Counted from the first letter of the stretch, positions 28,514 through 38,319 are shown. The stretch: 64,000 nucleotides of DNA from Thermoanaerobaculia bacterium (GCA_038244815.1 JBBRTB010000005.1:92936-156935); one strand, 5' to 3'. Translations and numbers: made by a program. The notes: generated from the letters alone by a model not told the origin.

Positions 28514-30481
28514 ATGTGCGGAATCGCAGGTTGGTTCGGAACGCTGCCGTTCGGCGGCGAGCATGCCGGCGAGATGGTTGGCCGGATGCGCCATCGGGGA
28601 CCCGACGCAAAAGGGGTTCGACGATGGGAGCACGCGGCGCTCGTCCATGCGCGCCTGAGCATCATCGACCTCACTACGACCGGCGAACAGCCGTTGAGCG
28701 ACGAGACGAACCGCATGTGGACGGTCTTCAACGGCGAGATCTACAACCATCACGAGCTGCGCAGTGATCTCGAGGGCCGCGGCCACTCTTTTCGGGGGCG
28801 CGCCGATTCGGAGGTTCTCCCGCACCTGTACGAAGAGTGGGGCCGCGATCTTCTTCCCAGGCTGCGGGGGATGTTCGCGTTCGCTACATATGACAGCCGC
28901 GACCAGCGCCTGCTCCTCGGACGCGACCGCTTCGGGATCAAGCCGCTGTTCTACGCCGTTCTTCCGGACGGCATTGCATTCGCCAGCGAGCTCCGAGCGC
29001 TTCTGTGTCTTCCCGGCATCGATCTGTCGATCGACGCGCAGGCACTCTTTGACTTCACCGCGCTGACATACGTTCCGGCGCCGCAGACGATCTACAGGGG
29101 AATCCGGGTCCTGGAACCGGGATGCGCACTGGAGGCGGAGATGACCGGCGGTCGCTTCCGTCATCGTGTTTTCCGCTATCACGATTGGGTCCTGCAGCCG
29201 GATTCCTCGCTGCCGCTCGGTTCCGCGGTGGATCATGCGGACCGCCTCGTTTCCAGGGCGGTGCGCTCGCAGCTGGAGAGCGATGTCCCGATCGGATCAC
29301 TGCTCAGCGGAGGAATCGATTCGTCGCTTGTGAGCGCGGCCGCCCAGGAAGCGATCGCGCCCGACACGCTGCACACGTTCAACGTGCGGTTTCCGGATGC
29401 CGCCTACGATGAGACGTGGGCGGCCAGAATGGTCGCCGACACGATCGGGTCGGCACATGAAACGCTCGAGTTCGAAGCGGGAACGGGCACCTGGGATGAG
29501 GTCTGCGCACTGCTCGCGCACGCCGGTCAGCCGTTTGCGGACACATCGATGTTCGCCGTCAATGCCGTCTCCCGTCTGATGCGCCGGCATGTGAAAGTGG
29601 CGTTGTCGGGCGATGGCGGCGATGAAGCGTTCGCCGGATACGATCTCTACTGGCAGCTCAACCGGCTGTCGAGATTGTCGTCCGTTCCCCGGCCGCTTCT
29701 CATTGTGGCGCGGGGCGGACTTCGTGCCGCGGGACTGGTGTCGTCGCGCTACACGCGCTGGGCCGGCCGCCTGCGCGATTTCGAGAGCGGCGATGAAGCA
29801 GAGATCATCGGCTCGCTGTTCCGGTGGATTCGCGACGAAGAATTGCGCCGTCTCCTGCCGGACCTGGCGGTCGAGCCGGTGGTGCGTCACTTCGAAAAGA
29901 GGTGGGAGCACATCCTTCCACCGCAGGCGTCGCGCCTGGAGAGGCTGTCGGCGCATGCCACGGAGATCAATGTCCGTCTGCTGCTGCCGGACGATTTTCT
30001 CTTCAAGGTCGATATGGCCAGCATGCGGGAGAGCCTCGAAGTCCGCGTGCCGATGCTGGACGAGGAGCTCGTGGACTTCGGCATGTCACTCCCGCACCGG
30101 CTGAAAGTCAGGAATCATGATGGCAAGCTCGTACTGCGCGAGCTCGCCGCGCGGAAACTTCCCGACGCCGTTGCGCGAAAGCCGAAGTGGGGCTTCGGTG
30201 TGCCGGTCGACACATGGCTCAGTCCGGGTTTCCGCGACAGCCTTCGGGCCACGCTTCTTGCGGCGGACACGCCGATCGCCGCGTATTACGACCGGTGTGC
30301 TTACGGTCCGATCGTGGAGGCCTTCTGCGAAGGCCGCCAGCTCCCTGCGATTTCGCGGCAGGGGTTGTACCAGCGCGTGACCATGTTGCTCTCGACCCAT
30401 GTGACTTTGGCGGCGTTGCGAGAAAACCGGATCGTTCCGGCTTCGGAGCCCGAGGTTGCAGGATCGTCCCATCGTGGTTGA
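28514..30481 (+). CDS. asparagine-synthetase-family glutamine amidotransferase, paralog 1 (WbpS/WbpG-like sugar amidotransferase candidate)
   Basis: MCGIAGWFG N-terminal nucleophile Cys2. SGGIDSS ATP-pyrophosphatase motif (LLSGGIDSSLVSAAA). Confidence 0.85.
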   Translation: MCGIAGWFGTLPFGGEHAGEMVGRMRHRGPDAKGVRRWEHAALVHARLSIIDLTTTGEQPLSDETNRMWTVFNGEIYNHHELRSDLEGRGHSFRGRADSEVLPHLYEEWGRDLLPRLRGMFAFATYDSRDQRLLLGRDRFGIKPLFYAVLPDGIAFASELRALLCLPGIDLSIDAQALFDFTALTYVPAPQTIYRGIRVLEPGCALEAEMTGGRFRHRVFRYHDWVLQPDSSLPLGSAVDHADRLVSRAVRSQLESDVPIGSLLSGGIDSSLVSAAAQEAIAPDTLHTFNVRFPDAAYDETWAARMVADTIGSAHETLEFEAGTGTWDEVCALLAHAGQPFADTSMFAVNAVSRLMRRHVKVALSGDGGDEAFAGYDLYWQLNRLSRLSSVPRPLLIVARGGLRAAGLVSSRYTRWAGRLRDFESGDEAEIIGSLFRWIRDEELRRLLPDLAVEPVVRHFEKRWEHILPPQASRLERLSAHATEINVRLLLPDDFLFKVDMASMRESLEVRVPMLDEELVDFGMSLPHRLKVRNHDGKLVLRELAARKLPDAVARKPKWGFGVPVDTWLSPGFRDSLRATLLAADTPIAAYYDRCAYGPIVEAFCEGRQLPAISRQGLYQRVTMLLSTHVTLAALRENRIVPASEPEVAGSSHRG

Positions 30482-30494
30482 TGACCGGAACGCC

Positions 30495-38000: not shown

Positions 38001-38319
38001 GTTGTCCTGCACGTATCGCAACGCCGCTGAGCGGCGGCCCTGGCCCGCGAACCTTCTCGACAAGGGTGGCACGTTTCAGTCGTTCGTCGAGCCTGTTGTC
38101 GATCAGCGGCACGTGCAGAGACTGCGATGGGACGTCACGCAGGCGGTACGCGCGGCTCACGATCAGGGACGAAATCAGGTCGACCTGCTCATTCGCGTTG
38201 ACGGGACAGGTCCTGACGTTGCTGGCCGGGGACTTCGCGTTTGCGGTCCGGGATGGCCGGTCATCGACCAGCGTCCGAAGTTAATCCTCACCACAACGGC
38301 GGCGCCTGCCACGCGCTGA
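35005..38319 (+). CDS. large secreted FG-GAP/VCBS-repeat beta-propeller protein (about 1104 aa) with discoidin-like and carbohydrate-binding-like C-terminal domains
   Basis: GTG at 35005 overlapping the GNAT stop. Signal-like VRTLFLLPVVALCALALS. At least six FG-GAP/VCBS calcium-binding loops (DWSGDGKPD, DLNHDGLTD, DWDGDGLED, DVDGDGVAD, DRDGDGRLD, DADGDGTPD). C-terminal LLRFNDLPDGPVDKAVLELSTDA, like carbohydrate-binding modules of the DNRLRE/CBM96 type. Confidence 0.7.
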   Translation: MRTLFLLPVVALCALALSGGTYSVGPAASPLPGTGFRGDAGFEVADWSGDGKPDLFVYDTGSDGGGSVYLNLGTLSHPRFGHDNLLPFNSTETTPQTMQHISARAYCDLNHDGLTDVIFFDGQLRYCPNLGTKSNPYWWSLWPRPPGYFPGTAGMIRDNTRYSTGPESIYWNKGIFARQVLTLTVADWDGDGLEDLLICRTHGEAPGVVSLGEHEEWTNWGRIATGVPANLSGSDRDTAGALKEAPERGLWFYKNIGTPDRPMFDKGLEIVTPDGRPIAAPNPVVTDVDGDGVADVVSTETEYTSNAFRVDWPAGQQVVWFRRSSSADPAHLELARPLSEASGLPIKSGTLARFADLRGQGVLDLLVSEPGYPGTIRWYRNAAGSPREKLELEAPVILAGSDFGRFEFMDQPLIVDWFGPGSRDLLIHGVADAHCKWGLRRTALYKSVADRGEIRYQFAGLLNFSGDPAMVPLSAEERPYDVYGSAISFARDSRGKRHLMMSVAGNLFYFSDLAPDGLTFRRMQRVSLGAVNNRQRGWQEVGLTAAAGEVKFIRISNDIRGRAHLSDGMLDILRFEAIADGKNVATVANGVQAERFDLHDGKTHGLDRAMNLFTAGNANTDSSFNATSFGKNDELLVTLGQPSKLERIRFLLSDRDAGWYSRLVPFSWQGRIYRAGYEQGEVWYQYKVEVSADGSNWTTVSDRLKTEMLYSHPVLIDRDGDGRLDMLLYFTSADAIYPSTKTLRFYRNLGTDENPRYAAPIDATDEYGKVLEFPANWARYFSPQCGIAVAHLDGSGAADIILEGGDDGQLLRFRDVSSHPKAMLTLASEGSIMMGQKAFETHAGYWYFDVADADGDGTPDLIESNNARPMFYKGARAGAVMTREVSNASGLPDGIILRNGSSIPGGPVYAGNEAVSIDARKLIAATNSEPEELEFRGQQGGRENQKMILLRFNDLPDGPVDKAVLELSTDAELQADPWIRVPGASSPVSCNAIGNAWDPLSCTYRNAAERRPWPANLLDKGGTFQSFVEPVVDQRHVQRLRWDVTQAVRAAHDQGRNQVDLLIRVDGTGPDVAGRGLRVCGPGWPVIDQRPKLILTTTAAPATR

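Follow-up and report, generated by a model that had tools for sequence, protein, structure and literature searches.

What does a bacterium build with two glutamine-dependent amidotransferases, a methyltransferase and a very large secreted propeller protein, all encoded in a single surface-polysaccharide operon? The question is raised by a stretch of 64,000 nucleotides from a Thermoanaerobaculia bacterium (GCA_038244815.1, JBBRTB010000005.1:92936-156935; hereafter the window), in which two genes for AsnB-type enzymes (AsnB1 and AsnB2) lie on either side of a methyltransferase gene and are followed by genes for a GT4 glycosyltransferase (GT4b), a GNAT acetyltransferase and an FG-GAP/VCBS propeller protein. 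On balance, and by a narrow measure, we regard the block as the core of an O-antigen-like operon comprising two uronamide-forming AsnB enzymes, a methyltransferase linked to them, a GT4b/GNAT unit and a secreted propeller that would process the polymer.

The open reading frames (ORFs) of the window were annotated with Pfam and NCBIfam, and the junctions between genes were read directly from the sequence. An earlier note on this DNA had described a tightly packed block of seven genes, and the family models placed all seven of them where it had put them and with the domains it had named, as follows:

28514..30481, + strand: AsnB1, glutamine- and ATP-dependent amidotransferase of the WbpS-like kind (GATase_7 and Asn_synthase; start MCGIAG; PP-loop LLSGGIDSS)
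30495..31499, + strand: class I SAM methyltransferase (Methyltransf_11/23; Trm112-like motif at the N terminus; C-terminal extension, conserved)
31507..33351, + strand: AsnB2, the second amidotransferase (Pfam and NCBIfam; start MCGIGG; PP-loop CLSGGLDSS)
33351..34370, + strand: GT4 glycosyltransferase GT4b (1-nt overlap with AsnB2)
34367..35008, + strand: GNAT acetyltransferase (PF00583, 56 bits; ATGA junction)
35005..38319, + strand: secreted FG-GAP/VCBS protein of 1104 amino acids with Ca-type motifs (PF13517; GTG start; signal peptide)
38330..39553, + strand: GT4 glycosyltransferase GT4c, WcaI-like (NF007640, 169 bits, under that model's cut-off)

The overlaps of 1 to 4 nt that the same note had pointed out were also found at their three junctions, TGATG between AsnB2 and GT4b (1 nt), ATGA between GT4b and GNAT and GTGA between GNAT and the propeller gene.

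To characterize the two amidotransferases, 67 AsnB-like proteins of related loci were aligned with E. coli AsnB, the sole reference sequence. In this alignment both AsnB1 and AsnB2 kept C1, R49, N74, G75, E76, D98, the SGGxD PP-loop, D351, Y357, K429 and K449, and Cys1 together with the glutamine-binding residues R49, N74, E76 and D98 was present in at least 63 of the 67 locus homologues. Given this retention of catalytic residues, both enzymes look competent for glutamine hydrolysis and adenylate formation; their matches to GATase_6/7 had E values of 1e-43 to 1e-47, and those to PF00733 reached 243 and 238 bits. The substitutions are at E348, K376, R387 and T322, which we take to be acceptor-side positions of the E. 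coli enzyme, and which are replaced by D, W, K and A, respectively, in AsnB1 and by Q, Y, Y and G in AsnB2. NF006949, the AsnB-specific equivalog model, scored 269.4 bits for AsnB1 and 263.1 for AsnB2 against a cut-off of 499, with the glutaminase domain as the only best-matching stretch. Thus, with the acceptor side replaced and the AsnB-specific cut-off missed, neither protein appears to be a housekeeping asparagine synthetase. Both also failed the model for the XrtA/PEP-CTERM amidotransferase (TIGR03108; 413.5 and 379.6 bits versus a cut-off of 816.9). The closest solved structures were the hydroxyamidotransferase 7ylz and, after it, AsnB itself.

AsnB1 and AsnB2 are only 33% identical and are old paralogues, not a tandem duplication; the earlier note was right about two enzymes with a catalytic Cys and an SGGxDS motif, and not about their being tandem in that sense. 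In a rough neighbour-joining tree, drawn without support values and rooted on E. coli AsnB, so that the separation from that enzyme is assumed and not tested, the two fell into two distinct clades of AsnB proteins from polysaccharide loci. Every member of the AsnB1 clade abuts a methyltransferase, and AsnB1 orthologues with 64-74% identity directly adjoin the methyltransferase in three of the loci (L001, L004 and L005). For its part, the AsnB2 clade includes the AsnB gene that, in eight further loci, gammaproteobacterial and others, follows the methyltransferase at a distance of 2-3 kb.

The architecture of both proteins agrees with that of WbpS (P. aeruginosa O6), WbqG (E. coli O121) and PGN_1234 (P. 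gingivalis), all of which are full-length AsnB proteins that combine an Ntn glutaminase domain with a PP-loop domain and are encoded inside O-antigen or other glycan clusters. WbpS has been described as delivering ammonia to uronic-acid carboxylates (PMC3684757), and a Wbp-pathway sugar of P. gingivalis loses its glucuronamide form when PGN_1234, which lies beside wbpE and wzx and was related by its authors to WbpS and WbqG, is deleted (PMC7468200). PGN_1234 acts on a di-N-acetyl uronic acid of the Wbp pathway, and the window likewise pairs its AsnB genes with a Wbp domain set; a glycan cluster with a uronic-acid pathway, as expected for the WbpS/WbqG type, is indeed present, with a 6-dehydrogenase and Wbp-type domains flanking the block. 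Unlike the three published systems, the window has two paralogues with differing acceptor signatures, known from sequence alone. Both AsnB proteins would thus fit the WbpS/WbqG/PGN_1234 kind, and since the published AsnB-type enzymes of glycan clusters make uronamides, uronamide formation is the most likely chemistry. That part of the earlier proposal of sugar amidation is supported by the precedents and the residue conservation.

According to this mechanism, glutamine would be hydrolysed at Cys1 of each Ntn domain, the PP-loop domain of each enzyme would adenylate a sugar carboxylate, and the channelled ammonia would displace AMP to yield the uronamide. Because the acceptor pockets of AsnB1 and AsnB2 differ, two distinct substrates are suggested; one candidate is a 2,3-diacetamido-uronic acid supplied by the Wbp branch, another an acid of the GlcNAcA/GalNAcA type.

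Relatives of the methyltransferase between the two genes number more than 5000 (E≤1e-10), and the best 120 of them are 58-78% identical to it. A survey restricted to one genome per species retrieved 385 relatives, of which the best 80 (50-69% identical) were taken; they come from at least 7 phyla (Acidobacteriota, Gemmatimonadota, Gammaproteobacteria, Bacteroidota, Verrucomicrobiota, Actinomycetota, Armatimonadota, Nitrospirota, Myxococcota and others). Linkage was counted in the 55 loci with at least 5 kb on both sides of the methyltransferase. An AsnB homologue lay within 10 kb of it in 39 of these loci, at least two homologues in 21 and at least three in 8, and in 22 loci an AsnB gene adjoined the methyltransferase directly. 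No locus among the 55 had AsnB on both sides, and the exact order is confined to the window and its nearest relative, L001. The loci most syntenic with the window are from Acidobacteriota; one of them, L004, reads Wzx-GT-Wzy-GT4a-AsnB1-methyltransferase-GT4b, without AsnB2, GNAT or propeller. The methyltransferase is conserved far better across phyla (50-78% identity) than the adjacent AsnB and glycosyltransferase genes (mostly 25-37%); for the AsnB neighbours taken separately, most loci gave approximately 30-37%, versus 53-69% for the methyltransferase. Since the AsnB1 and AsnB2 clades of the tree track the loci linked to the methyltransferase, the two AsnB genes and the methyltransferase gene look like a recurring module with shuffled gene order.

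These counts do not agree with the description of the block as unusual in the earlier note, nor does the published exopolysaccharide (EPS) cluster psc1 of Rubrivivax gelatinosus, which contains three wbpS-like genes, is syntenic with clusters of Thauera and Rhodoferax, and includes a paralogue 37% identical to WbpS that has a biofilm phenotype (PMC3684757). As in the window, several AsnB/WbpS paralogues are interleaved in psc1 with GT4, wzx and wzy genes; psc1, however, is a PEP-CTERM-type betaproteobacterial locus, and neither the conserved methyltransferase nor a propeller has been reported for it.

The methyltransferase would most likely methylate the amidated residue or a neighbouring one. 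A precedent is provided by Tannerella forsythia, in which a cluster with asnB, methyltransferases (mtfJ/O) and wecB/wecC encodes a terminal 4-O-methyl-N-acetylmannosaminuronamide (PMC6120980), so that amidation and methylation take place on the same uronic-acid residue. That system differs from the window in its methyltransferases, of 90-213 amino acids versus a 334-amino-acid family, and in its product, a protein O-glycan versus an O-antigen-type polymer, and the role of AsnB there is putative. The order put forward previously, amidation followed by methylation and acetylation, is conjecture.

The N terminus of the methyltransferase had been read as a Trm112-like zinc ribbon, which could not be sustained. 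With E values up to 10 allowed, PF03966 (Trm112) still did not match the window protein, and one homologue reached 14.3 bits versus a cut-off of 22. The motif, CPLH...CP...DGIPRF, offers two Cys and one His instead of four metal ligands, and only C24, H27 and C40 are conserved; with its DGIPRF-type motif, the segment is possibly a degenerate relative of Trm112, the likeness being at the level of the motif.

Further features of this family were observed. The C-terminal extension of the methyltransferase, of approximately 130 residues, is conserved and has no family assignment, and some loci (L009 and L024) carry tandem double copies of the gene. Loci of the Steroidobacteraceae type (L062, 5028-14843; L052, L063 and L064) contain three AsnB paralogues from three clades in the order AsnB-GT4-AsnB-methyltransferase-X-GT4-AsnB, and all three lie under the TIGR03108 cut-off (555, 450 and 304 bits versus 817).

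Downstream of AsnB2, GT4b and GNAT would operate as a unit, since in L001 they form one fused protein of 545 amino acids (5134-6771). GNAT may equally serve in the N-acetylation of an amino sugar made by a second DegT/dehydratase set.

The last element of the block, the 1104-amino-acid protein, starts from a GTG codon, carries the signal peptide MRTLFLLPVVALCALALSGG and matched PF13517 (FG-GAP_3) with 70.5 bits versus a cut-off of 26.9. Approximately 10 FG-GAP-like units were recognized, seven of them with clear Ca-type loops (Dx[DN]xDG). Structural modelling, which the earlier note had proposed, was carried out with AlphaFold2 from 58 homologues and resulted in a model with a pLDDT of 90.7 and a pTM of 0.91; residues 21-400 modelled alone gave the same confidence. 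From the ten or so units in the sequence we infer that the model comprises two five-bladed propellers, at approximately 21-400 and at approximately 400-530 plus 717-880, the second being interrupted by a discoidin-like insert at approximately 535-710 (weak PF00754), rather than the one large propeller described earlier. The carbohydrate-binding-like C terminus of that description did stand: the module at approximately 895-1100 is CBM96/DNRLRE-like and has the same fold as solved modules of the CBM96 type (CBM, carbohydrate-binding module). DNRLRE-type domains are known from alginate, hyaluronate and pectate lyases (PMC9971899). In comparison with the corresponding modules of alginate and chondroitin lyases (PDB 7vbo and 8wab), the one in the window is joined to FG-GAP propellers and not to a known lyase domain.

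The propellers resemble those of five-bladed glycoside hydrolases (GH43, GH62, GH32/68, GH130 and GH159) at the level of the fold, the blades of the window protein being FG-GAP/VCBS repeats with Ca-type loops; no Pfam glycoside hydrolase family matched the protein. Outside the Ca loops, N306, D311, W312, P313, W378, Y379 and R441 are invariant in the family. A profile of the family searched against PDB sequences gave marginal matches only, to CRTAC1, 7vbo and CBM32. A global Foldseek search of the whole model against the PDB returned the multi-propeller proteins DDB1 and SF3B130 with TM values below 0.25 and, apart from the CBM match, was uninformative.

The propeller family is rare. A word-indexed search found 61 close relatives, and an exhaustive search of 1.84 billion representatives yielded approximately 8 full-length clusters at 50% identity, the other matches being repeat matches in giant proteins. 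The genomic contexts of homologues were examined at 11 loci. Only one, L001, is the same type of biosynthetic block; its homologue, 59% identical, is placed after DegT and Bac_transf and not after GNAT. Degradative contexts were found at six loci, which hold a heparinase II/III-like lyase, a Pel9A-like beta-helix protein, esterases, SASA, GH1 or a sulfatase, as follows:

L089: sulfatase with GntR/LacI regulators
L090 and L092: operons with esterases, SASA and a heparinase II/III-like lyase
L091: Pel9A-like beta-helix protein
L093: operon with esterases, SASA and GH1
L094: GH1 with SASA and GDSL esterases

Three of these loci (L090, L092 and L093, approximately 1-19000 each), every one from a different sample, consist of a long co-directional operon and resemble an undescribed polysaccharide-degradation locus. 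Each encodes several proteins of approximately 600 amino acids without family assignment (faint DUF6923), a propeller homologue, BD-FAE/Abhydrolase_3 esterases and a SASA-like protein. In a Verrucomicrobiae metagenome-assembled genome (L086, 10001-16974), tandem paralogues of the propeller family, of 1163 and 1159 amino acids, lie amid housekeeping genes.

Taken together, the fold, the CBM-like module, the lyase and esterase contexts and the invariant residues lead us to favour a secreted carbohydrate-active protein that recognizes an anionic polymer and probably processes it. The propeller, probably Ca-binding, would bind the acidic polymer outside the cytoplasm via its CBM-like modules and would probably trim, cleave or otherwise process it. 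Secreted glycanases such as AlgL, PslG, BcsZ and ExoK are a common accessory of EPS operons; like the window propeller, they are secreted or periplasmic and encoded inside biosynthetic operons, where they cleave the polymer, whereas their folds are unrelated and the activity of the window protein is predicted only. Literature searches on FG-GAP proteins as lyases in Planctomycetes found none, and those on FG-GAP or beta-propellers with polysaccharide lyases found general papers only.

A glycan-processing role is better supported than the export scaffold proposed in the earlier note, for which there is no support: no Wza or Wzc domain was detected among the window ORFs scanned, and only 1 of the 11 homologue contexts is a biosynthetic locus. 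On the reading favoured here, the propeller is a protein recruited to the operon in one lineage and not a conserved export component.

The serious rival to processing, if an unlikely one, is a purely binding propeller, that is, a non-catalytic lectin, adhesin or matrix organiser that would hold the acidic polymer at the cell surface without being an export machine. FG-GAP propellers are typically interaction domains, related repeats are found in giant surface proteins, the protein carries two CBM-like modules (discoidin-like and CBM96-like), and no catalytic residues were identified. However, the homologues sit in operons of lyases, esterases and GH1, which are typical of enzymes, CBM96 modules are normally appended to lyases (PMC9971899), and the seven invariant residues outside the Ca motifs are non-structural. 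We consider it quite improbable, on the other hand, that the gene is a passenger inserted in the operon and unrelated to the polysaccharide. Its family is not conserved in biosynthesis loci, where it is found only in the window and in L001, and the syntenic locus L004 is without it; nevertheless, the gene overlaps the GNAT stop codon (GTGA), another GT4 gene starts 10 nt later, and the association with the block is kept in L001 at 59% identity, in another position.

The block is embedded in a run of co-directional genes that is unbroken on the + strand from approximately 21.3 kb to 43.1 kb. In addition to the seven genes listed above, the following features were annotated:

19509..20930, - strand: nucleotide-sugar 6-dehydrogenase, WbpA/WecC-like (Pfam UDPG_MGDP_dh N, central and C domains; TIGR03026, 422 bits versus a cut-off of 189.8; the ORF extends to 21107, true start uncertain)
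21354..22307, + strand: GFO/IDH/MocA oxidoreductase, WbpB-like (PF01408 and PF02894; C-terminal half of ORF 20310-22307)
22204..23754, + strand: Wzx-type flippase (PF01943 Polysacc_synt)
23751..24653, + strand: FkbM-family methyltransferase, the second methyltransferase of the cluster (PF05050; TIGR01444, 102 bits)
25750..27300, + strand: Wzy-type polymerase (PF14296 O-ag_pol_Wzy)
27297..28511, + strand: GT4 glycosyltransferase GT4a (Glyco_trans_1_4, Glyco_transf_4; ATGA overlap with the Wzy stop)
39550..40635, + strand: UDP-GlcNAc 2-epimerase, WecB/WbpI-like (TIGR00236, 326.9 bits versus a cut-off of 210; ATGA junction)
40632..41291, + strand: hexapeptide acetyltransferase, WbpD-like (PF00132)
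41257..42468, + strand: DegT-family aminotransferase, WbpE-like (PF01041, 441.6 bits)
42465..43064, + strand: small Bac_transf phosphoglycosyl transferase, the initiating enzyme (PF02397, 195 bits; C-terminal part of ORF 41958-43064; ATGA overlap with the WbpE stop)
43558..44931, - strand: membrane protein of the O-antigen ligase family, Wzy_C/WaaL-like (PF04932, 65 bits)

Four more ATGA overlaps were found in this run, at Wzy/GT4a (27297), GT4c/WbpI (39550), WbpI/WbpD (40632) and WbpE/Bac_transf (42465), and the remaining operon junctions are spacers of 2-13 nt. The surroundings also hold a minus-strand epimerase, a GDP-fucose-synthase-like enzyme and a PglF/WbpM-like dehydratase, and the glycosyltransferases around the seven-gene block number two. 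Of the window ORFs scanned, none matched an exosortase-type Pfam family. With its tailoring and assembly genes, the block forms the core of a Wzx/Wzy-dependent O-antigen-like cluster, a fairly ordinary type of surface-polysaccharide locus.

Other genes were noted upstream. A second DegT aminotransferase, a rhomboid protease and an NAD-dependent epimerase/dehydratase are encoded at 10012-13670, approximately 8 kb upstream of the main operon, and may share a sugar pathway. Just upstream of the cluster, a 352-amino-acid ORF (17337-18395, + strand) showed a marginal match to the tailspike-type intramolecular chaperone Peptidase_G2 (25.6 bits versus a cut-off of 25), and beside it lies a gene for a 791-amino-acid reprolysin-like metalloprotease with a PKD domain (14707-17082, - strand); a reprolysin-like gene is also found near the block in L001 (21573-23267).

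The Wbp route to UDP-ManNAc(3NAc)A, WbpA/B/E/D/I in P. aeruginosa O5 and Bordetella, comprises five domain types, all of which flank the block (dehydrogenase, GFO oxidoreductase, DegT aminotransferase, hexapeptide acetyltransferase and WecB-type 2-epimerase). At the level of domain assignment this is the full set for a di-N-acetylated mannuronic acid, in agreement with the earlier view of a sugar-tailoring operon beside UDP-ManNAc3NAcA synthesis. In P. aeruginosa O5 this sugar bears an acetamidino group, and it could be asked whether one of the two AsnB enzymes makes such an amidine on an N-acetyl substituent instead of a uronamide. The domain set of the cluster and the unusual acceptor signature of AsnB2 (Q348/Y387) speak for this alternative, as does the speculation of the T. 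forsythia authors that AsnB makes the Pse5Am group (PMC6120980). Against it, T. forsythia also has a uronamide that requires an amidotransferase (PMC6120980), and the literature cited here shows no AsnB-type enzyme making an amidine. The known acetamidino enzymes, of the WbpG/TIGR03573 type, are PP-loop-only proteins without an Ntn domain that work with HisH/HisF. Both AsnB1 and AsnB2 carry the Ntn domain, neither matched a family of that type in NCBIfam (E≤0.001), and no amidine module of the WbpG/HisH/HisF type is present. The analogy with WbpG drawn in the earlier note was therefore imprecise, and we rate amidine formation as low as the passenger hypothesis for the propeller.

Several observations weigh against the uronamide operon as a whole. 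Only one sugar 6-dehydrogenase is visible, and two uronic acids would need a branch point. The likeness of the AsnB proteins to WbpS, WbqG and PGN_1234 is one of architecture and gene context, without direct sequence comparison to them, and both proteins pass the broad asparagine synthase model TIGR01536 (428 and 442 bits versus a cut-off of 267). In addition, 16 of the 55 loci carry the methyltransferase without any AsnB gene within 10 kb. Regarding the propeller, its likeness to five-bladed glycosidases is at fold level only, with 6-13% identity, the C-terminal match to the DNRLRE model NF033679 is 21.4 bits versus a cut-off of 34, and 4 of the 11 contexts (L002, L084, L085 and L086) are uninformative, with housekeeping neighbours.

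That both AsnB genes encode genuine asparagine synthetases is extremely improbable in spite of the TIGR01536 scores, given the NF006949 result, the replaced acceptor-side residues, the presence of two divergent copies in a glycan operon with a context conserved across phyla, and the gene for GatA (Asp/Glu-tRNA amidotransferase subunit A) at 57120-58514 of the window, since in an organism using the indirect Asn-tRNA route a housekeeping AsnB would be dispensable. The best named relatives of this GatA, 80-81% identical to it, are from metagenome-assembled genomes of Thermoanaerobaculia.

The uronamide operon thus remains the reading we prefer. A more far-reaching version of it, which we put forward tentatively and hold to be rather doubtful, would join both lines of evidence: the 1104-amino-acid protein would stand for a class of polysaccharide-active enzymes that is rare and uncharacterised, that works elsewhere in degradative operons beside heparinase-like lyases and esterases, and that has been taken up here to process the chains of an O-antigen bearing uronamides. 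AsnB1 and the methyltransferase, for their part, would form a two-step module, shared across phyla, for the synthesis of a methylated uronamide sugar.

The block belongs to a known kind of system with widely recurring components, and current understanding is not overturned by it. If the proposal is true, an example from Acidobacteriota would join the few uronamide pathways that are understood from experiments; since a uronic acid loses its negative charge on amidation, those properties of the polymer that depend on charge should change. Two leads arise from the analysis, the cross-phylum methyltransferase-AsnB module and the rare double-propeller/CBM96 family. The latter is a reasonable candidate for a new family of carbohydrate-active enzymes. 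For its part, the association of the methyltransferase family with amidotransferases of the WbpS-like kind, seen in many bacteria that are uncultured and mostly of soil type, points to a common, uncharacterised sugar modification, which could be solved once for many organisms.

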